From positions 3,158,932 through 3,222,931 of the forward strand of contig OZ220741.1 of the NCBI GenBank assembly GCA_965116885.1: 64,000 nucleotides of DNA, in the 5' to 3' direction. Positions within the stretch are counted from its first letter, which is position 1. Each line of letters starts with the position of its first letter. Source of the stretch: Candidatus Latescibacterota bacterium. Its GTDB lineage: Bacteria; Latescibacterota; UBA2968. The position numbers and the translations under genes are program-made. The notes under the pieces were generated by a model, which was not told where the DNA came from, searched no databases, and saw only the letters and a list, made by a program, of their open reading frames with translations. Positions 2,920 through 27,900 of this stretch are shown here, piece by piece.

Positions 2920-4347
2920 TTACGCGTGACGCTTTGACACGGTCATGGGAACGGGAGCTTTCACCATGGAAAGCAGGAAGAGAGCGCTGACCCGTTCCTT
3001 GAGCGGACCGGGAGAGACAGTATCAAGTCGCAACCGCTGGGCGGTGCTCGCCAAAAAATAAACGCAGACGCGCATGGCAAATTCCCTTCCTGTACATTGG
3101 CGGGTATCATAACCGAACGGCATGTAGGCACACGGAGGGCGCTCCGGCTGTGGGTCCTTCAGCCAGCGCTCTGGCCGAAATTCTTCGGGTTGATCCCAAT
3201 ATTGCGGGTTCCGATTGTGGGCGTCTATAACGCTCAACACCATCGTCCCTTTGGGAATACTATAGCCACCGAGATCATAATCCTGCCTTGTGACCCGGTT
3301 CAGCACAGGTGCGGGAGCCCCAAGTCGCAGAGTCTCTGACATAATGGCCCTGGTATAGGAGAGCTTATCATAATCTTCGACCATGATCTGACGATCACCC
3401 AGGACATCATCGACCTCCTCTTCCAAACGCCTGCGCACTTCGGGATAATAGGCGATGTGGCCCACCGCCTTCGTGAGCGCAATCAGCGTTGGATCGATCG
3501 GAATCGTGATGTTTTCGACCAGCAGATCGTGAACCTCAAGGTCGCTGAGAAGTCCCTCTCCATCCTCCCTGGTATTCGCATCTATCAGACGCGAAGCCAT
3601 GCTGTAGGGGGCATGGGACCCATTGCGGACTTGTTCGATGGTCTTGTAGATCAAGGCACTCAATTCCCAGAACGATTTTTTGGAACTTCTGCTCCTTGGC
3701 AGGGGGAACTTTCTAAGCAGCGATGTGCCCGGAAGAGCGCAGAGTATCATGTCCTGCTTGTATCCCTCCATCGCATCCACGACGACGCTCGGCCGGATAG
3801 CGTCGAGTGCGTTTCCGAGATTCATGCGAATAACGCAATGCGCCTGGAGATCTCTCAATTCCTTCCAGAGGTGAATCATCTGGCCAGGCTTCCAGCGTGC
3901 GTGCAGTGCCTGGATATTCTCAATGATTCGCGCTGAATGTGCCTCCAGGAACTTACGGTCCAGGAGCCCTGGCCCCATCAGTTTGAGCGACCTTTCGTAA
4001 AACGCATCATCGCTCCCGTTCAGGCCCAAAGTACATTCGACAAAAAGACTCTTCTTTTCCGGGTTCATGTAGTCTATCGGGTTGAACTTGCGAAACGCCT
4101 GTACGGGTGGACCGTCTGGATTGTCTGGATCAGGGATTTTTGCTGTTAAAACTTCGTGTATGAGATCCAGATCATACACGATGCAGTAATTCAGGACCGG
4201 CATCTTGTAGTAGCTGATGTCACCGTATTTCTCGCGAAGCTCTTTCAGAAAACGGGAAAAATCCGACATATGTTTTATCAGATTGTACAGCTTGGGTCCC
4301 CTGGGACCGGGAGGCAATTTTGGGCTTTTTTTGATTGACTTTCGCAT
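2920..4347 (-). CDS. Cytochrome P450 monooxygenase
   Basis: The heme-binding signature PFGYDTRQCTG (FxxGxRxCxG) is present with the cysteine ligand. An N-terminal proline-rich PPGPRGP hinge is present. An SD sequence GAGGAGG lies 8 nt upstream of the ATG. Confidence 0.85.
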   Translation of the reverse strand: MRKSIKKSPKLPPGPRGPKLYNLIKHMSDFSRFLKELREKYGDISYYKMPVLNYCIVYDLDLIHEVLTAKIPDPDNPDGPPVQAFRKFNPIDYMNPEKKSLFVECTLGLNGSDDAFYERSLKLMGPGLLDRKFLEAHSARIIENIQALHARWKPGQMIHLWKELRDLQAHCVIRMNLGNALDAIRPSVVVDAMEGYKQDMILCALPGTSLLRKFPLPRSRSSKKSFWELSALIYKTIEQVRNGSHAPYSMASRLIDANTREDGEGLLSDLEVHDLLVENITIPIDPTLIALTKAVGHIAYYPEVRRRLEEEVDDVLGDRQIMVEDYDKLSYTRAIMSETLRLGAPAPVLNRVTRQDYDLGGYSIPKGTMVLSVIDAHNRNPQYWDQPEEFRPERWLKDPQPERPPCAYMPFGYDTRQCTGREFAMRVCVYFLASTAQRLRLDTVSPGPLKERVSALFLLSMVKAPVPMTVSKRHA

Positions 4348-10202: not shown

Positions 10203-10317
10203 CTGCACAATCTACAATTACATTAAAAACACCCCCGCCCAGAATGGCCAGGCGGGGGTTTGTTTGGTTGTATAAAAGGGGCGATTACGTCACCACAGGT
10301 GACATACCCGGTTCGCC
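10203..10317. repeat. Repeat copy B: paralogous ~115-bp element with hairpin acccccgcc…ggcgggggt, A/T flanks and the same 3' segment caccacaggtgacatacccggttcgcc
   Basis: It aligns with 2753..2862 in direct orientation. Its 3' part forms the last ~11 codons (…AGEPGMSPVVT) of the minus-strand sulfatase at 10285..11604, and the hairpin with T-tract lies just downstream of that gene's stop. Confidence 0.6.
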
Positions 10318-11604
10318 CGCGTGGTATGACGCCAGGCACCAGGGGTCTCGGGTTTCTTTGCGGAAGGTGCGAACTTTTTGTCGCATGACTTCGGCGATGT
10401 CCTGAACCTCCGGGTCGTCGATGATGTTGGTGGATTCCATGGGATCATTTTCGATATCGAAAAGGGCTTCTGCATCCTGGTGCAAAAATTTTTCCGTGCG
10501 GCGTTTGCCCATTTCCAAATTTTCTCTGCGGATGGCCTGCCAGGTGGGCGAGGCCCACAGGTCACTGGGCAAAGGGGTGGTGATTTCGGGATAGAGATTG
10601 CGCACGTATTTGTATTTGCGTCCACGCAGTACCCGATAGGGGTAGTAATTGGTGACTTCGTGGAAGGTGTGGGAAAAGAAGGTTTCGTCAAATCCCTCGG
10701 GATGTGCTTCGCCGAGGATGGGGACGAGGGATTTTTCAGGTAGCCCTTCGGGAGCTTCAACGCCACACCATTCAAAGACGGTGGGGGCGATGTTGTTCCA
10801 GTTGACGAGGGCGTCGCTGACAACAGCTGCGGCATCTGGGCGCGCAATGATGAGCGGACAGTGGTGACCCGTGTCAAAAGAAGAGGCTTTGCCGCCGGGA
10901 AAGGGCATGCCGTGATCGCTCATGACGATGATCAGGGTATCCTCGGCACGACCAGCGTCTTGAAGTGCCTGCACAGCCATGCCTATGCCGGTGTCGAGGC
11001 GAGAGACGGATTGGTAGTATTCGGCAAATTCTCGTCGAACATCTGGATGGTCGGGCAAAAAGTCGGGAACGATGACTTCGTCTGGGGAGTATGTGACTTC
11101 GGGAACGCCGGGATAGGTTTGTTTGTTGCCGAAGTCACGGTGAGGATCGGAATAACCGACGTGTAGATAGAATGGCTGGTCGCTGTCAATGGTTTCAAAG
11201 AATTTTGAGATGTTGTCTGCAATACCGCGCACATTGCGCCCACCACCAGCTTCGTAGTTCCAGGGATAGACAGATTCGGGTTGGACGTGGAGTTTGCCGA
11301 CAACGCCGGTTGTGAATCCGGCGGATTGTAGGGTTTTGGGAATTGACGGCATGTTGAGTTGTGTGTGGAAGTTGTGGATGCTATGCGAGTGACCGTATTG
11401 TCCGTGCGTGTGGCTGTAGTGCCCGGTGAGCAGGTTGGCGCGGCTGGCCGCACACGATGGGGTGGTGCAAAAGGCGTGCTTAAATAAGGTGCCCCGCGCG
11501 GCAAGGGCATCTACGCTGGGCATTTTGATAATATTATTGCCATAACATCCGGCAATGGGACTCCAATCGTCGGCAATGAGTAAGAGGACGTTGCGATAGG
11601 ACAT
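10285..11604 (-). CDS. Sulfatase (alkaline-phosphatase superfamily, arylsulfatase-like) with non-canonical active-site motif
   Basis: The N-terminus begins NVLLLIADD, matching the sulfatase metal-binding start. The active-site region is FCTTPSCAASRANLLTGH, where the CxPxR position reads C-A-A-S-R. No signal peptide is present. Confidence 0.85.
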   Translation of the reverse strand: MSYRNVLLLIADDWSPIAGCYGNNIIKMPSVDALAARGTLFKHAFCTTPSCAASRANLLTGHYSHTHGQYGHSHSIHNFHTQLNMPSIPKTLQSAGFTTGVVGKLHVQPESVYPWNYEAGGGRNVRGIADNISKFFETIDSDQPFYLHVGYSDPHRDFGNKQTYPGVPEVTYSPDEVIVPDFLPDHPDVRREFAEYYQSVSRLDTGIGMAVQALQDAGRAEDTLIIVMSDHGMPFPGGKASSFDTGHHCPLIIARPDAAAVVSDALVNWNNIAPTVFEWCGVEAPEGLPEKSLVPILGEAHPEGFDETFFSHTFHEVTNYYPYRVLRGRKYKYVRNLYPEITTPLPSDLWASPTWQAIRRENLEMGKRRTEKFLHQDAEALFDIENDPMESTNIIDDPEVQDIAEVMRQKVRTFRKETRDPWCLASYHAGEPGMSPVVT

Positions 11605-11615
11605 AAGATCTCCTT

Positions 11616-12932
11616 TTAATTTCTTATTGAACTGTTGTCGCGTTTTCGCTCATCGGCTATTTGTTCGAGCATGCGATGCACGCGGTCGAGTTGTGTAGAT
11701 GTTATATTTGCCGTTTCGTAAGGATCGGAACCGATGTGAAAAAGTTCGGTTTCTTCGGGGGTTTGGCCTTCTTCGTAGATCAATTTCCAATTGCCCGTTC
11801 GCATGCCAAAGGACGATCCTCTAAAATTCCAGAAGATAGACCGTTCTTCGGGTATAGCGATGTCGCCCGTGAGCAGGGGCCAGATGTCTTGGCCATCCCA
11901 TTGGGGATCGCTGTTGGGCGTATAGTCAATGAGATTGGTCAGGGTTGGCATCCAGTCGGTTATGTGCAAGGGGTGAAAGCATTTGCCGGGTTGCAGATGA
12001 AAAGGCCAATTAATCAGGGATGGCGTGCGAATGCCGCCTTCGTAGAGTTGAGATTTTTGACCTCGCAGGGGCAAATTGCAGCCCAGGCGCGGCATGTCTT
12101 CGTGTCGGCCCGGGTATTTGTCCGTGTCGTGAAGGGGACCGGCAGGGATGGCACCGTTGTCCGATGAGAAGATGATGATGGTGTTTTCGCGCTGGCAGGT
12201 GCGGGCAAGGGTCTCGACGAGTTGACCGATGGCGTGATCCATCTGGCTGGCGTACGCGGCATAGGTTTTGAATGAGCGGTCTTTGTTGTCGTCGAGGTCG
12301 TAGCGCCGGTCTGAATAGCGGTCTATCCAGTGTTGCGGCGCTTTGATGGGGGTATGAACAGCGGTGAAAGGAACATAGCAAAACCAGGGACCTGTTTGCG
12401 CTTCGATCCACCGGGTGGCTTCCCGAGCGATGAGGTCGGTGACGTGGCCGCGTTCTTCAATGAGTTCGCCATTGCGGTGCCAGGTGACGCTGAATGGTCC
12501 CGATTTGTAGCGGTGGTTATACGGGTCAACGCCGCCGGCAAGGCTTCCATAAGCGGCATTGAAACCAAATTGGTTGGGGCCGTATTCGGGAGAAGATCCC
12601 AGATGCCATTTTCCAAAGAGGCCGGTTTCGTAGCCCGCATTGCGGAAGGAGGAGGCCAGTGTTTCATAGCCATCTGGGAGGACGGGAGCGTTGGAGGGGA
12701 CGGTGGCGTGGCGTCCAAAGCGACCGGGATGGCGGCCCGTTAGGAGACAGGTGCGAGTGGGAGTACACATGGGACAGACGTAGTGCTGGTCGAGTTCGAT
12801 TCCCGTGGCTGCGAGGCGGTCGATATTGGGCGTGCGAATGTGTGAGCCGTGATAGCTGACGTCACCCCAGCCCATGTCGTCGGCGAGGATGAAGAGAATA
12901 TTGGGTTTTTCAATTTTTCCAGATTTGGTCAT
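11616..12932 (-). CDS. Sulfatase (arylsulfatase family) with canonical CTPTR motif
   Basis: ILFILADDMGWGD and CPMCTPTRTCLLTGR signatures are present. The most likely start is the internal Met of MTKSGKIEKPNILF, which avoids overlap with the upstream VanZ-like gene. No signal peptide is present. Confidence 0.85.
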   Translation of the reverse strand: MTKSGKIEKPNILFILADDMGWGDVSYHGSHIRTPNIDRLAATGIELDQHYVCPMCTPTRTCLLTGRHPGRFGRHATVPSNAPVLPDGYETLASSFRNAGYETGLFGKWHLGSSPEYGPNQFGFNAAYGSLAGGVDPYNHRYKSGPFSVTWHRNGELIEERGHVTDLIAREATRWIEAQTGPWFCYVPFTAVHTPIKAPQHWIDRYSDRRYDLDDNKDRSFKTYAAYASQMDHAIGQLVETLARTCQRENTIIIFSSDNGAIPAGPLHDTDKYPGRHEDMPRLGCNLPLRGQKSQLYEGGIRTPSLINWPFHLQPGKCFHPLHITDWMPTLTNLIDYTPNSDPQWDGQDIWPLLTGDIAIPEERSIFWNFRGSSFGMRTGNWKLIYEEGQTPEETELFHIGSDPYETANITSTQLDRVHRMLEQIADERKRDNSSIRN

Positions 12933-12954
12933 GTCAGGTGTCCTGTTAAATATT

Positions 12955-13362
12955 CTATAAAATCCACTGTCTGATTTTACCGTTTTCTCTGTGTTTCGCA
13001 TACCACAATAGCAGGATTATAATTGCGACACCTGTGCCATCCCACACCACATCGGTCCAGACGCCAGTGCGACTGGGTACAAAGGATTGATGGTATTCGT
13101 CCAATATCGCATAGAGAATGGATATCAGGACGCTCCACAATACACAGGGGGCAAATCGGTTCTTTGTCCATAGAGATCGGAAACACAGATAGGTCAGAAT
13201 AGCATATTCTGCTATGTGGGCAAATTTGCGTACGGCATGGTGTATTCGTTCACTAAAAAAGAAAATTTTTTCTGTATTCTCGAACGATAGCAGGCCGCTT
13301 GAACCAATAAAAATTAAGAGTAGCCAGACAAACAGGGCGATGCGCCAATGCATTGTTGTCAT
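12955..13362 (-). CDS. VanZ-like family membrane protein
   Basis: The conserved VanZ motif DEYHQSFVPSRTGVWTDVVWDGTGV (DExxQ…R…D…N/D.G) is present with four TM segments. The start was chosen at MTTMHW, downstream of the preceding gene's stop. Confidence 0.55.
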   Translation of the reverse strand: MTTMHWRIALFVWLLLIFIGSSGLLSFENTEKIFFFSERIHHAVRKFAHIAEYAILTYLCFRSLWTKNRFAPCVLWSVLISILYAILDEYHQSFVPSRTGVWTDVVWDGTGVAIIILLLWYAKHRENGKIRQWIL

Positions 13363-18983: not shown

Positions 18984-20027
18984 CTACCTGATTTTTAGTA
19001 ATAATATCAGCAAGAGAGGCGTTACAATGGCTTGTAAGAGCGTAAATCTGACCAGTACCTGTGTATTGGACCAGCCCCATTTTTGACGGACGTGATCGTG
19101 CAGGGGATAACGCACCTGTTTGAAAATGCCGATTTTTAAAAAGCGCAACAAAGCGACTTTCAGAAGGCCTGTTGCGCCATTGACCAGCACCACCCCGGCA
19201 ACTACGATAATCAAAAACGGATTGCCACACGCCAGGACCAGCATACCGAGTAATAAGCCCAGAGGACGAGATCCGGCATCGCCCATTAACACGGCACTTG
19301 GATTGGCATTGTGCCACAAGTAGCCCACCAAACACCCCGTCATGACAAAAGCCATCACGGCCCAATTCGCGCCCTCTTTGTAGTGTGGCACAAGCAGGTA
19401 TTGGGCGATATCCCGATGTCCTACAATGCCGTATAGTGCACCACCTAAAAAAATAAAGGCCAGCATGCACAAACTGCCCGATAGGCCATCCACGCCGTCT
19501 GTGCAATTTGTAGCGTTAATCGTCATCCACAACAAGCACGTAGCAATAGGGATATAAATCCAGGGTGGGACAATAACCGGTGTTTTAATGAGCGGCAGCC
19601 ACACTTCAACTGATGCCATCTGGCACACTACCATCGCACCCAAAATGGAGATGATCAGATCGAATAACCCCATGCGGTATTCACTCCACTCATAGCGGTC
19701 ATCGAGAAATCCCACCAGCATCGCCAAAAACAGGCACCCCAATGCGGCCAGATAGCGCGTTCCAAGCGGCACAAATAAAAATCCGACGACAATAAAAATA
19801 GAAATAAAAATAATACCTGCCCCTACGGGTTTGCCCTTATTTTGGGCGGCGCCAACAGCATGCGCTCGCCCCTGATCGCGCGGTAATCGGTGCCACAATT
19901 TGGGCAAAATTCTCCAGGTGAACACGCAGGCGAGCGCGGTACCTGCACCAACTAAAAATAAATGAGAAGTAAAGAGGCGAAATGGCCCATAGACGTTCAA
20001 AAGTTGCTCCCCCAGCCAGTAGAGCAC
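18984..20027 (-). CDS. mraY: Phospho-N-acetylmuramoyl-pentapeptide transferase MraY
   Basis: The N-terminus MLYWLGEQLLNVYGPFRLFT parallels E. coli MraY. The DD motif VGFLDDRYEW, the NATNCTDGVDGLSGSL loop and the PLHDHVRQKWGW His-motif are present across 10 TM segments. Confidence 0.8.
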   Translation of the reverse strand: MLYWLGEQLLNVYGPFRLFTSHLFLVGAGTALACVFTWRILPKLWHRLPRDQGRAHAVGAAQNKGKPVGAGIIFISIFIVVGFLFVPLGTRYLAALGCLFLAMLVGFLDDRYEWSEYRMGLFDLIISILGAMVVCQMASVEVWLPLIKTPVIVPPWIYIPIATCLLWMTINATNCTDGVDGLSGSLCMLAFIFLGGALYGIVGHRDIAQYLLVPHYKEGANWAVMAFVMTGCLVGYLWHNANPSAVLMGDAGSRPLGLLLGMLVLACGNPFLIIVVAGVVLVNGATGLLKVALLRFLKIGIFKQVRYPLHDHVRQKWGWSNTQVLVRFTLLQAIVTPLLLILLLKIR

Positions 20028-20144
20028 AGCACAATCTCCCGTGTGATATGATTTGAAAAACGAAACAAATCAAGACCAATGTAAGGTCTCTATGATTAAA
20101 GGGCAAGTCTGAACTCATAGCTGGTTCCATTTGAAAGAAAAACC

Positions 20145-20400
20145 TTGACGCGAAAACAGAGACTTTCTATTTTGTGTACTATGAACGCATTGATCAAAAA
20201 CCCGGTTATTTTTTCAAATCCAAACACAATTTTGGCCGGGGATGCGTTTGTCCATACTGCCCAGCATCATACCCATCATGCTACGTCTGCGACTTTTTGC
20301 ATGATATGCTCGGCGGTGGATATGTCATAACAGTTTGTCCAATGAAATGAACAAGCCCGCTGTCGAGAGACAGTGGGCTTTTTTTTTTAGGAGAATGACA
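20145..20400 (+). promoter_or_regulatory. Putative hisI leader/attenuator: promoter, His-rich leader ORF, intrinsic terminator abutting the hisI RBS
   Basis: The promoter reads TTGACG (20145..20150), a 17-bp spacer and TATTTT. The leader ORF to the TAA at 20328 contains VHTAQHHTHHATS, with 5 His codons (all CAT) in 9 positions at 20253..20279. A 10-bp hairpin gcccgctgtc-gaga-gacagtgggc (20355..20378) is followed by 10 Ts (20379..20388), then AGGAG (20389..20393) and the hisI ATG at 20401. Confidence 0.35.
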
Positions 20401-20829
20401 ATGTCTATTAATCGTCAACTCGAAGAAGGCACAGAACTTCATCTCGATTTTGAAAAGCTACGCAAGGTTGCACAAACCGACCATTCCGTCATTCCCGTTG
20501 CTGTACAGGATGTGGATAGCAAAGCCGTTCTCTTGATCGGCTATGTCAACGAACGGGCACTTGATTACGCGCTTGAACACCGCGTGGCAACATTCTGGAG
20601 TACTTCGCGCAATGAACTCTGGATCAAAGGGGCTACGTCTGGCGATATGCTCGAACTGGTCGATGTGCGTATCAACTGCGAGCAAAATTCACTGCTTTAT
20701 CTCGTGCGCCTCAAAGGCGATGGATCGTGTCATACGAAAGAAAATGGTCGAGCGCGTTACGGCTGTTATTACCGCAGTATCGATAATGGAAAATTGACAT
20801 TTGTAAATCCCAAAACCATACCGGAGTAA
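20401..20829 (+). CDS. hisI: Phosphoribosyl-AMP cyclohydrolase HisI
   Basis: The conserved core IPVAVQD…LLIGYVNERAL…FWSTSRNELWIKGATSGD…CEQNSLLYLV…CHT is present. An SD AGGAG lies 7 nt upstream. Confidence 0.85.
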   Translation: MSINRQLEEGTELHLDFEKLRKVAQTDHSVIPVAVQDVDSKAVLLIGYVNERALDYALEHRVATFWSTSRNELWIKGATSGDMLELVDVRINCEQNSLLYLVRLKGDGSCHTKENGRARYGCYYRSIDNGKLTFVNPKTIPE

Positions 20830-20835
20830 TGAGTC

Positions 20836-21336
20836 ATGTCATCAGAGGTCGTTACCCGAATCCGTTCAGATCAATGGCGGATACTCAGGGATGTGCGCCT
20901 CCGCGCACTTGAAGATGCGCCTTACGCTTTTAGTACAACGCTATCAGAAGGCGAAAAAAGAACTAATAGAGACTGGCAGGATATGGCGAGGGACCATGCT
21001 ACTCTGTCGGATCGCGCCTATTTTATAGCTTATGTGGGGGATAATCCCTGTGGCATGGCGGGGTGTTATCGCAGAGCATCAAACGTAGTAATGCTCACCG
21101 CGATGTGGGTCGCGCCCGAATTTCGGGGGAAAAATATCGGTGAGCAGATTGTGTGCGCGGTCATAGAATGGGCACGAGAGGGTGGGGCCACCACGCTTGA
21201 AGCCTGGGTCAGCGAAAATAATCCAGCGCGTTTTTTTTATCAAAAAATCGGATTTGAAGAGACCAGTTTAACCGAACCGCTTCGCTCAGATTCCAAAATT
21301 CAGATCATTTTGATCAGGCGCGATATTGTACCCTGA
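20836..21336 (+). CDS. GNAT-family N-acetyltransferase
   Basis: The acetyl-CoA binding motif region MWVAPEFRGKNIGEQIV is present and the 166-aa length fits a GNAT fold. Confidence 0.7.
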   Translation: MSSEVVTRIRSDQWRILRDVRLRALEDAPYAFSTTLSEGEKRTNRDWQDMARDHATLSDRAYFIAYVGDNPCGMAGCYRRASNVVMLTAMWVAPEFRGKNIGEQIVCAVIEWAREGGATTLEAWVSENNPARFFYQKIGFEETSLTEPLRSDSKIQIILIRRDIVP

Positions 21337-21454
21337 AATCCGGGTTGATTCGCAATCTTCTCAATACTATATTGCTCACATGAGAAATGGTGTACAAATG
21401 CGACAGCAATTCATTCGGACAAATCAGAGCACCCGACGACAGGAGGGAGAAAAC

Positions 21455-22429
21455 GTGGGTTATGATCTCAAAGTTTTTTCGGGCAATACCAATCGGCCAT
21501 TGGCAGAAGATATTTGCAATATTCTCGACACTCGGCTTGCCGAAGCCACTGTGACTCGTTTTTCTGGTGGTGAAACACATGTGCAAATTGATGAAAACGT
21601 GCGCGGCTGTGATGTTTTTATTGTGCAACCTCTTTGTGCAAATGAAGAAGAAGGCATCTCGCCCAATGACGCCTTGATGGAACTTCTCATCTTGATTGAT
21701 GCTGCGCGACGCGCCTCTGCGCGACGCGTCACAGCGGTTGTGCCCTATTATGGCTATGCACGGCAGGATCGCAAAGACCGTCCCCGCGTGCCTATCACGG
21801 CCAAACTGGTCGCCAATATGATTTATACCGCTGGAGCGCGGCGAGTTCTAACTCTGGACCTGCACGCCAATCAGATCCAGGGTTTTTTTGACATACCCGT
21901 TGATCACCTCTACTCCATTAACATTTTAGGCGAATACTTCAGGCTAAAAAATTTCAAAGATCTCGTTGTTATGGCACCCGATGTCGGCGGTATAAAAATG
22001 GCGCGCGCTTATGCCGAATTGCTCGGTGCGCCGTTGGCTATTGTAGATAAACGCCGCTGGAGTGGTCAAAAAACCGAGGTTCTGAACGTCATTGGTGAGG
22101 TGAAAGACAAAAATATCGTCATTGTTGACGATATTATCTCTACGGGTAGTTCCCTAATCGAAGCCGCCTCTGCACTCAAAGACAAAGGCGCGCGCGATAT
22201 ATGCGCTACCATCGTCCACCCGGTGCTGGCAGATCCCGCTGTTGAGCGCGTGGAGAATTCCATTCTTACAGAGCTTGTTGTTTCCAATTCTATTCCCGTG
22301 CCCAAACGCGCCCAAAATGGGAAAATCAAAATTCTGTCAGTTGCCCCTATTCTCGCCGAATCCATCCGCCGCATCAACAATGATGAATCCGTCAGCAATC
22401 TCTTTGCGAATGCGAGGGTTGAGGGATGA
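21455..22429 (+). CDS. prs: Ribose-phosphate pyrophosphokinase (PRPP synthetase)
   Basis: The core LKVFSGNTNRPLAEDIC…DVFIVQ… and the PRPP-binding loop VIVDDIISTGSS are present. The start was chosen at the GTG after AGGGAG, and the ORF-track start 21326 is an upstream extension. Confidence 0.85.
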   Translation: MGYDLKVFSGNTNRPLAEDICNILDTRLAEATVTRFSGGETHVQIDENVRGCDVFIVQPLCANEEEGISPNDALMELLILIDAARRASARRVTAVVPYYGYARQDRKDRPRVPITAKLVANMIYTAGARRVLTLDLHANQIQGFFDIPVDHLYSINILGEYFRLKNFKDLVVMAPDVGGIKMARAYAELLGAPLAIVDKRRWSGQKTEVLNVIGEVKDKNIVIVDDIISTGSSLIEAASALKDKGARDICATIVHPVLADPAVERVENSILTELVVSNSIPVPKRAQNGKIKILSVAPILAESIRRINNDESVSNLFANARVEG

Positions 22430-26550: not shown

Positions 26551-27900
26551 CTAAGCGCATTCAGCGCACATTTTGTCGCATCGTCGTCTCAGTCGGTTGA
26601 GTTGATCTGAGGATCTGGGATCTCTCGCGAGATTAAAGGATTCGTGGGGGTCCTTGCGGAGATCGTAGAGTTCCTCATAGACGGGCTGTTGCTCGTAGTA
26701 GCGAATGTATTTCCAGCGTTTTGTGCGTATGCCTTCGCTCTTGGGGATGTCGGCACGATGGAACCGGTGTTCGCAGAAGAACGCTTTTCGCCAGTCAACT
26801 TTCTCGTCGCGCAACAATGGAACAAGAGATTTGCCCTGCATTTTGTCCGAGGCGTCCAGATTCGCCAGTTCGAGGATGGTTGGTGCGATATCGATGTTTA
26901 GTGCTAATTCTTCGCGGATGAGACTCCGGTTGTCCTCGGCATCTCTTGGATCGAAGACAATAAGGGGAATGCGGATCGACTGTTCGTTCAACTGCCAGCA
27001 GTCGCTGAGTCCGCGATCTCCATAGTACATCCCATGGTCAGATGCGAAGATTACGACTGTGTTGTCGGATAATGACAGTTGATCCATCGCCTCGAGAATC
27101 CTGCCGATGTTCCGATCCACACCGCTCACCATTCGGTACAGCCCTCGCATGTTTCTCTGATAGTCCTCAGATGTCGAATAGCGCTTTTGCCATCGTGCGC
27201 GACTTTCCGTTTCGCGAAGAAATTTTGGCAACTGTCGGAAAAAGTCGGGATGGGCGTTGAATGGCTCTGGTATTTGCGTCTCTGTGTAGAGGGGATTTTC
27301 TGTAGCGGGCCAAATGTAGTAGCGCGGATCATTGTCCTGCGCGTGCGGCGCGTTGAAACTGATGGAGAGACAAAATGGCTGGCCGGGATAATCTGATTGA
27401 TGTGTGCGTAGGAAGTCGATCGTTTTGTCCCCTGTAATGTCGGTCAGGTGGCGCACACTGCCATCGGGCTGTCTGATTTCATACCCTTCTTCAGTCCAGT
27501 GTTCGTAGTTTTCGAATACGTCAAACATCTTTTCCACTGTATCCTCGTCCTGCAGAGAAGGGGCGATTCCGTTGGTGGCAATGCCGAATTTGCCGATTAG
27601 CCCTGTGCGATAACCCGCCATTTTAAGAGTAGCAGGGTAGGAGATGTCGGTGTATGCGCTTTGAAGGGGTGGTGTGAGGAAGGTGAATCGGTGGCGTTTT
27701 TCATAGGTGCCCGTGAGATAGCTGGCCCGGCTTGCGGCGCAGATTGGACTTGTGCAGAATGCGTTTTCGAACCGCACACCGCTTGCGGCAAGCCGATCTA
27801 TGTTTGGGGTTTTGATGATTGGATTGCCAGCGCAGCCGAGCAGGTCATTGCGCTGGTTGTCGGTCAGGAGGAAGAGGATGTTCGGAGGAGGTGCCCTCAC
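26551..27900 (-). CDS. Sulfatase (arylsulfatase-like) with non-canonical C-A-A-S-R active-site motif
   Basis: ILFLLTDNQRND is followed by FCTSPICAASRASYLTG. There is no signal peptide. The start overlaps the stop of the upstream Gfo/Idh/MocA gene. Confidence 0.85.
   Translation of the reverse strand: MRAPPPNILFLLTDNQRNDLLGCAGNPIIKTPNIDRLAASGVRFENAFCTSPICAASRASYLTGTYEKRHRFTFLTPPLQSAYTDISYPATLKMAGYRTGLIGKFGIATNGIAPSLQDEDTVEKMFDVFENYEHWTEEGYEIRQPDGSVRHLTDITGDKTIDFLRTHQSDYPGQPFCLSISFNAPHAQDNDPRYYIWPATENPLYTETQIPEPFNAHPDFFRQLPKFLRETESRARWQKRYSTSEDYQRNMRGLYRMVSGVDRNIGRILEAMDQLSLSDNTVVIFASDHGMYYGDRGLSDCWQLNEQSIRIPLIVFDPRDAEDNRSLIREELALNIDIAPTILELANLDASDKMQGKSLVPLLRDEKVDWRKAFFCEHRFHRADIPKSEGIRTKRWKYIRYYEQQPVYEELYDLRKDPHESFNLARDPRSSDQLNRLRRRCDKMCAECA

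Follow-up and report, generated by a model that had tools for sequence, protein, structure and literature searches.

A predicted histidine leader-peptide attenuator upstream of a hisI-like gene in Candidatus Latescibacterota

In the his operons of enterobacteria, a short open reading frame (ORF) with clustered His codons, hisL, is followed by an intrinsic terminator located just before the first structural gene, and pairings between regions 1 and 2, 2 and 3, and 3 and 4 of the leader RNA (1:2, 2:3 and 3:4) accompany the presumed sensing of His-tRNA through ribosome stalling (PMC3896937, PMC9413887). In the trpL leader of Escherichia coli, following the summary given in PMC4007540, region 2 becomes free when the ribosome stalls and is masked when the ribosome terminates; when no ribosome is present, 1:2 forms and 3:4 terminates transcription. 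Leaders of this type are not confined to Proteobacteria; in fact, His-leader attenuators have been reported in bacilli, upstream of hisZ and of a hisS paralog (PMC2965389), and three lineages of Firmicutes (the Bacillus cereus group, Peptostreptococcaceae and Erysipelotrichales) carry His-leader attenuators that are non-homologous to the enterobacterial family, RF00514 (His_leader) in Rfam (PMC9413887). In a survey of Actinobacteria no RNA element was found for the his genes (PMC1262725). In Deinococcus deserti, leader peptides are translated from leaderless mRNAs, with the AUG at or 1 nt from the 5′ end, and these leaders precede genes for amino acid biosynthesis or tRNA synthetases (PMC4007540). 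Here, we describe an element upstream of a hisI-like gene in a 64-kb stretch (64,000 nt, hereafter the window) of contig OZ220741.1 of a Candidatus Latescibacterota bacterium, which we regard, with good though not complete confidence, as a predicted histidine-responsive, ribosome-mediated (leader-peptide) transcription attenuator reporting the charging of tRNA-His. Our search of the literature for attenuators of this kind in Latescibacterota found nothing.

In its logic this element follows the his and trp attenuators of enterobacteria, and the element itself is a new, phylum-specific family of a known type of switch; the understanding of how attenuation works is left unchanged. The features listed above for hisL recur or are predicted at this locus, but there is no similarity in sequence or structure: RF00514 gave no match at the gathering threshold or up to an E value of 10. 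The leader is also much longer (49 codons versus 16–18 in enterobacterial hisL), its four to six His codons in the various homologs are mixed with Thr, Ala, Gln and Arg codons while hisL has seven in a row, it has no Shine-Dalgarno sequence in the window, and it would control only hisI, with hisG or prs in relatives, instead of a full his operon. The parts played by a stalled, a terminating or an absent ribosome would be those known for trpL (PMC4007540). Unlike trpL, the element would respond to another amino acid and has the leader's stop codon just 3′ of region 2 and not between regions 1 and 2. The His leaders of Firmicutes, which contain 3–5 His codons, resemble it in their independent origin outside Proteobacteria and in being known by comparative genomics only (PMC9413887, PMC2965389), but, going by their descriptions, they are set apart by phylum and by sequence. 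In D. deserti the leaderless start sites were mapped experimentally (PMC4007540), with no His leader seen among the examples considered, whereas here such a start is deduced from the spacing between promoter and ATG. A preliminary description of this locus knew of no precedent for a His-leader attenuator at a solitary hisI outside Proteobacteria; the leaders of bacilli and of the three Firmicutes lineages are His-leader attenuators outside that phylum. If our interpretation is correct, classical leader-peptide attenuation is extended to Latescibacterota, a phylum without a cultured model, and the element adds to the evidence for a repeated, independent origin of His-leader attenuators.

All the parts of the element lie on the + strand, within a few hundred nucleotides. 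A sigma-70-like promoter, TTGACG-17-TATTTT (20145–20173; 9 of 12 matches in a consensus scan), is followed by the leader ORF (20181–20330), which runs for 49 codons from the ATG at 20181 to the TAA at 20328–20330 and encodes the peptide MNALIKNPVIFSNPNTILAGDAFVHTAQHHTHHATSATFCMICSAVDMS; its ATG lies 7 nt after the –10 hexamer. The regulatory codons form the cluster H-T-A-Q-H-H-T-H-H (20253–20279), with five CAT codons in nine (at 20253, 20265, 20268, 20274 and 20277). Downstream of the ORF is a terminator hairpin (20353–20380) of 12 bp, seven of which are G-C, with a GAGA loop, and the sequence continues with a tract of ten T (20379–20388), a Shine-Dalgarno sequence AGGAG at 20389 and the ATG of hisI at 20401 (20389–20403), which leaves just 12 nt between the T tract and the start codon of hisI. 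In the preliminary description the promoter, the 49-codon ORF, the five CAT codons, the hairpin, the T tract and the AGGAG/ATG had been placed at these same positions, and the 10-bp GC-rich hairpin that it reported at 20355–20378 corresponds to the inner pairs of the 12-bp stem. The upstream neighbour is a gene of a family 4 glycosyltransferase on the minus strand (18984–20027) and, since it is transcribed divergently, the terminator cannot be its own. The His cluster taken by itself is unusual but not unique: in the six-frame translation of the 64-kb window, 12 of 97,288 stop-free stretches of nine codons contain at least five His, and these fall in a few loci. What takes the unit beyond chance is that the cluster precedes hisI with a promoter on one side and a terminator on the other, and that the whole unit is maintained in 35 other genomes.

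These genomes were obtained by a search with the HisI-like protein, which retrieved 35 metagenome-assembled genomes (MAGs) at 78–94% identity, nearly all of them labelled Candidatus Latescibacterota, with three Gemmatimonadota and one “uncultured bacterium.” The leader was sought by nhmmer in 80 hisI loci (L001–L080), first with its DNA sequence as the query and later with a profile derived from it. The complete unit of promoter, ORF and terminator is present in 35 of 35 related loci, always on the strand of hisI and upstream of it, and no nhmmer match was obtained in the 45 hisI loci of other phyla; the conservation of the His-rich ORF in relatives, which the preliminary description had left to be checked, is thus established. 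Across 34 aligned homologs the –35 TTGAC and the –10 TCTATnTT show little or no variation, and among the 35 loci the hexamers are conserved with L033 as the only exception. Every homolog has the T-rich tract after the hairpin and a start codon for the leader, ATG in all of them except L003, which has GTG, at a variable distance from the –10 hexamer. The peptides measure 46–56 amino acids in 36 sequences, their frame survives indels of +6 and –9 nt, and most of them end in CSAVD. The His cluster is conserved as HTA[HQ][HR]HTHH, or as HTAHHMHHH or HTTTHHTHH in distant members, and the number of His is four to six in the homologs, L017 excepted. In two further searches, a metagenome scan with the pattern TCGGCGGTGN{22,52}GCCCGCTGTCG returned 120 stretches, none of which matched the leader profile, all being chance matches, and a protein search with the 49-residue peptide recovered only two database proteins and thus no further diversity.

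The homologs also bear on how the leader would be translated. In 31 of them the start codon is found 6–10 nt behind the –10 hexamer and is not preceded by a Shine-Dalgarno sequence, which makes the leaderless start proposed in the preliminary description plausible; a leaderless or near-leaderless start in the window is a reasonable reading of this promoter–ATG spacing. The three most distant leaders (L025, L030 and L033) have instead a 5′ untranslated region of about 33 nt, with a Shine-Dalgarno-like AGGA 7–8 nt before the ATG. This comparison suggests a single leader family that has switched between Shine-Dalgarno-led and leaderless initiation, in which the window would provide a probable case of a leader peptide on a leaderless mRNA.

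The manner in which the ORF is conserved changes along its length. Using as a measure the identity to the majority base at codon positions 1, 2 and 3 across the leader alignment, codons 2–22 at the N-terminus (0.71/0.74/0.69) carry no coding signature; in codons 25–33, the His cluster (0.92/0.91/0.68), the meaning of the codon is under selection and the third base is free, so that the His codons survive through synonymous changes between CAT and CAC; and in codons 43–46 (TGC TCG GCG GTG), which belong to region 2, all three positions are at 0.97–1.0, indicating selection at the level of the RNA. Such a three-regime pattern is the one expected of a regulatory leader and not of a peptide working as a protein, and three signatures of selection along one short ORF make these 36 sequences a clean worked example.

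The RNA spanning 20176–20400 is strongly structured, folding at –78.1 kcal/mol (z = –6.05 against 200 shuffles), and contains the strands of three pairings. Region 1, the 5′ strand of an anti-antiterminator (20250–20282), includes the His codons; region 2 (20299–20321), with its core CUCGGCGGUGG at 20309–20319, can pair with either region 1 or region 3; region 3 comprises the 5′ arm of the terminator (20353–20364) and its loop, and region 4 the 3′ arm (20369–20380). The 1:2 duplex (20250–20282 with 20299–20321), at –27.6 kcal/mol, falls within the 1% tail of genomic segments; its consensus core UACCGCC:GGCGGUG is recovered by RNAalifold. In the window, the His cluster contains ACUGCC (20256–20261), the partner of GGCGGU in region 2, and therefore the regulatory codons overlap the strand predicted to sequester the antiterminator strand. 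An antiterminator mutually exclusive with the terminator, the existence of which the preliminary description had raised as a check, is found in the 2:3 pairing of 20309–20319 with CCGCUGUCGAG at 20357–20367, a part of the terminator 5′ arm and of the loop; it counts 11 bp and, with –20.3 kcal/mol, belongs to the 0.5% tail of genomic segments. The 3:4 terminator lies at about –20 to –23 kcal/mol. Across 34 sequences the terminator is paired in 98% of the alignment cells and the antiterminator in 98.1%, as compared with 41–79% when the partner strand is slid, and a 2:3 duplex of –14.9 to –22.2 kcal/mol is predicted to be possible in all 36 homologs. In those homologs whose frame was read correctly by the script, region 2 has its 3′ end –3 to +10 nt ahead of the stop codon that closes the leader; for this reason a terminating ribosome would mask region 2.

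Folding of the full-length transcript with a masked ribosome footprint always produced the terminator and did not discriminate between the regulatory states, and neither did a crude count of the pairs to the terminator 5′ arm. Because equilibrium folding cannot tell these states apart, the folding of nascent transcripts was used. With the RNA masked up to 20282 or 20291, mimicking a ribosome stalled at the His codons, the minimum-energy fold of transcripts ending at 20368–20374 is the antiterminator, while in unmasked transcripts 1:2 forms in place of the antiterminator. A further helix near the 5′ end (20183–20208 with 20233–20249) was left out of the mechanism, being paired in 63–71% across the alignment with uncompensated changes.

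On these grounds the switch would operate as follows. Transcription would begin a few bases downstream of the –10 hexamer, on the AUG at 20181 or not more than about 3 nt away from it, and a ribosome would translate the 49-codon leader as the RNA polymerase moves ahead. When charged His-tRNA is scarce, the ribosome would stall in H-T-A-Q-H-H-T-H-H (20253–20279) and cover region 1, leaving the core of region 2 (20309–20319) free to pair with 20357–20367 as soon as the latter is transcribed; the terminator would be blocked and the polymerase would read into hisI, the following GNAT acetyltransferase gene and probably prs. When charged His-tRNA is plentiful, the ribosome would run on to the stop at 20328, which follows region 2 by 7 nt, and mask this region, so that the 3:4 terminator could form and transcription would end in the T10 tract. 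If the leader were not translated at all, region 1 would pair with region 2, with termination again as the outcome. The parts of the sequence, their conservation, the energetic feasibility and the positions of the three pairings and the codon-position signatures are read directly from the sequences and folds described above, and from them we infer the start site, the translation of the leader, the coupling of ribosome and polymerase and the response to histidine. The proposal of a His-codon leader-peptide attenuator made in the preliminary description therefore passes both of its computational checks, the exclusive antiterminator and the conserved ORF.

Several observations weigh against this mechanism. 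After synthesis of the 3′ arm the terminator is thermodynamically the best fold in all cases, even with the His region masked; in the full transcript masked in this way, the terminator fold has –30.8 kcal/mol versus –22.1 kcal/mol. Since the terminator is favoured at equilibrium, read-through must be kinetic, as in classical attenuators. Covariation does not speak for the antiterminator, as both strands are nearly invariant and no pair (0) has changed on both sides; a strand that needs two partners is expected to be frozen, and its invariance is no proof of pairing. When region 2 and region 3 were swapped between lineages, the advantage of cognate over non-cognate partners was weak (mean of –18.0 vs. 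–16.5 kcal/mol). The leader of L017 contains two His only, and 49 codons are long for a leader peptide. Furthermore, the window leader lacks a Shine-Dalgarno sequence and would have to be translated as a leaderless one, and the whole mechanism is a prediction from sequence. The doubt that remains with us comes from the antiterminator lacking covariation, from the leaderless start deduced from spacing and from this kind of evidence. Variation of a more limited kind does exist: the 1:2 core differs only by C-G versus U-G, a small internal hairpin shows 12 switches from U-A to C-G, in L030 a C-to-U change in the 5′ arm of the terminator is offset by a G-to-A change in the 3′ arm, with the pairing to region 2 kept as G-U (by inspection), and the differing terminator loops of L025 and L033 are each matched by complementary bases 5′ of region 2.

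It is important to consider what else a conserved, His-rich ORF in front of a terminator could be. The ORF might be an independent small gene, encoding a functional His-rich peptide (a metal-binding one or a precursor) and ending at its own terminator, with hisI expressed by constitutive leak-through or from an unrecognised promoter and no sensing of histidine. Its length of 46–56 residues, considerable for a leader, its conserved frame and terminal CSAVD motif, its annotation as a protein in two database entries and the precedent of peTrpL, a leader peptide acting in trans (PMC7298713), would all suit such a gene, but the N-terminal half shows none of the conservation typical of coding sequence, the C-terminal codons are invariant even at synonymous positions, where selection acts on RNA and not on amino acids, and in the 80 hisI loci searched the ORF is never found apart from hisI operons. 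In addition, only 12 nt are available between the T tract and the hisI start, and the consensus scan detected no promoter-like site on the + strand within 20174–20400. We consider this explanation highly unlikely, and such ORFs, of about 49 codons and located before hisI, are better annotated as regulatory than as hypothetical proteins. Also highly unlikely, in our judgement, is an RNA that senses histidine, tRNA-His or another signal without being translated, in the manner of a riboswitch, a T-box or a protein-bound leader, in which the His codons would be incidental. The strong structure of the region, the presence of GGUGGA in region 2, reminiscent of the T-box UGGN, and the wide use of T-boxes to control His genes in other phyla (PMC3896937, PMC9413887) could lead in this direction; against it, the exchange of CAT with CAC preserves the meaning of the codons and not a pairing, and the start codon, the maintenance of the frame through indels and the position of the stop codon relative to region 2 would not be needed in an untranslated RNA. 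The database comparison goes the same way: at gathering thresholds Rfam matches nothing in the whole window or in seven related loci, except one tRNA; up to an E value of 10 neither the T-box (RF00230, within 19900–20500) nor any known riboswitch appears, and what matches there are, to MicC, trpB and the leaders of Thr, Leu and Trp, stay below threshold and are owed to the terminator alone. Both the T-box or riboswitch and the independent small protein were thus rejected on the evidence of codon positions, frame and Rfam.

A different possibility accepts a ribosome-mediated attenuator but makes it answer to translation stress in general or to a set of amino acids (His, Thr and Ala), without specificity for histidine. 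The His codons are in fact interspersed with conserved Thr and Ala codons (HTAxHHTHH), and the genes regulated in the different genomes include prs and those for a methyltransferase, a GNAT protein and PhzF-like proteins. The conserved ACC GCC codons, on the other hand, are explained by their pairing with GGCGGU of region 2, His alone is far above expectation and alone is kept in number, at four to six in nearly all homologs, and the cargo that recurs is hisI, hisG and tRNA-His, so that a response of this broader kind appears very unlikely to us. The attenuator that reads histidine specifically remains the interpretation that we adopt in what follows.

The genes under its presumed control differ among genomes. 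In the window, the hisI-like gene (20401–20829, + strand) encodes a protein of 142 amino acids with a phosphoribosyl-AMP cyclohydrolase (PRA-CH) domain of the NCEQN subtype described below, and is followed after 6 nt by a GNAT acetyltransferase gene (20836–21336, +; PF00583), with which it is probably co-transcribed, and by prs, encoding ribose-phosphate diphosphokinase (21452–22429, +; NF002320, 430 bits). The latter, across a gap of about 115 nt, is possibly the distal gene of the operon; it is kept after the GNAT gene, which in turn is conserved directly after hisI in the loci of clade 1. The preliminary description had taken hisI as standing alone, which does not hold in view of these two genes and of those that relatives add, namely a methyltransferase, hisG, a prs paralog, a PhzF-like gene and tRNA-His. 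The order after the leader is hisI, GNAT and prs in the clade of the window; S-adenosylmethionine (SAM)-methyltransferase, hisI and hisG (PF01634/TIGR00070) in a second clade; and, in L030 and L033, PhzF-like gene, tRNA-His (in L033), hisI, hisG (detected in L030 only) and prs. Two relatives, L006 (2005–2979) and L007 (1249–2223), have directly after the leader a prs paralog of 315 amino acids (NF002320, 365 bits), additional to the prs downstream of the GNAT gene. The tRNA-His of L033 (anticodon GTG, 2882–2956) is on the same strand, downstream of the leader, between the PhzF-like gene and hisI; in this genome the sensed tRNA may itself be under the control of the attenuator. The presence of hisG, prs, the prs paralog and tRNA-His(GTG) downstream of the leader in relatives is what ties the leader to histidine supply. 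No other his genes were found in the annotated part of the window, its first 33 kb.

The close contact of terminator and hisI has a history of its own. In about 20 relatives a SAM-methyltransferase gene (about 240 amino acids, PF13649) is interposed between leader and hisI. The sequence of the window at 20365–20403 matches the start of this gene in L012 (2211–2248), except for one extra T in the T tract of the window, and the comparison of 20379–20403 with L012 at 2225–2248 and 2985–3010 identifies hisI from codon 2 onward. A deletion in the window has removed the methyltransferase gene precisely between its own ATG and that of hisI, and as a result hisI now uses the inherited Shine-Dalgarno sequence and start codon of the lost gene. 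The same gene was lost independently in L014 and L017, is fused in frame in L013 and survives with internal deletions or as remnants in L003 and L022; it has thus been lost in at least three or four different ways, with the linkage of leader and hisI always kept. The preliminary description had given weight to a terminator abutting the hisI Shine-Dalgarno sequence; its position is correct, but the arrangement arose only through this deletion from start codon to start codon, and is a derived state, the persistent link being that of leader to hisI.

The identity of the HisI-like protein deserves a separate consideration. The PRA-CH domain is recognised with confidence (PF01502, 76.9 bits against a cut-off of 27, E value 1.1e-21) and the protein is homologous to the solved HisI structures 1zps, 7bgm and 6j22, but it remains below the threshold of the NCBIfam HisI equivalog (92.8 bits against a cut-off of 126). 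The Asp residues of the DCDxD motif of HisI bind Mg2+. In place of this acidic motif of the solved enzymes, the window protein has NCEQN, as do 79 relatives spread over many phyla (Akkermansia, L059, among them), counting the relatives with a readable motif and leaving out L052, in which the frame is disrupted; the aligned C, CH and C residues are kept. These proteins look like a distinct subfamily of PRA-CH. The gene adjoins hisG in relatives of two phyla, that is in Latescibacterota and in Caldilineaceae and other Chloroflexia, and this adjacency argues for a working enzyme of the histidine pathway. An insertion of 5–6 residues precedes the last Cys in these HisI-like proteins. In L052, a long-read MAG, the disruption of hisI (3001–3427) reflects either a frameshift or an assembly error.

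Beyond the family described so far, other marine MAGs have, upstream of hisI clusters, His-rich leader ORFs that are not homologous to it and that come with promoters and terminators (L050 at 825–1215, L076 at 2468–2690 and L077 at about 1140–1290). In L050 there are two ORFs in tandem, MNNRTHHSGAVHMHHHHVMPAAWFAFDGV and a second one containing KHHYHFHCHAMPRAW, each having a terminator of its own; in L076 a single ORF lies about 120 nt ahead of hisI, and L077, from Gemmatimonadetes, has a similar one containing MHTHTHHTMTT. In L050 (1243–2535) and L077 (about 1794–2940) a truncated methionyl-tRNA-synthetase-like gene is located between the His leader and hisI-prs; it encodes 430 amino acids, matches the first 420 or so positions of MetG models below their cut-offs and is an unexplained passenger of these presumably His-regulated operons. 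One may speculate that the His leader marks an unrecognised regulon for histidine starvation, built around the NCEQN PRA-CH protein and a PRPP (phosphoribosyl pyrophosphate)-synthetase paralog, with non-homologous leaders gained independently in at least two lineages, which may be the family in Latescibacterota and that of L050, L076 and L077; the core may be joined variably by hisG, tRNA-His, the SAM-methyltransferase, the PhzF-like gene or the truncated methionyl-tRNA-synthetase-like gene. We consider such a regulon unlikely on present evidence. If it existed, the entry steps of histidine synthesis (PRPP supply, HisG and HisI) would be regulated as a module apart in several uncultivated marine phyla, and a role outside the textbook pathway would be conceivable for the NCEQN enzyme and the accessory genes.

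Near the locus, the window also carries three sulfatase genes (PF00884; at 10285–13001 and 26551–27900), a cytochrome P450 gene (2920–4347) and several genes for GFO/IDH/MocA oxidoreductases, a gene content which, we presume, would fit a lifestyle based on the degradation of sulfated polysaccharides.

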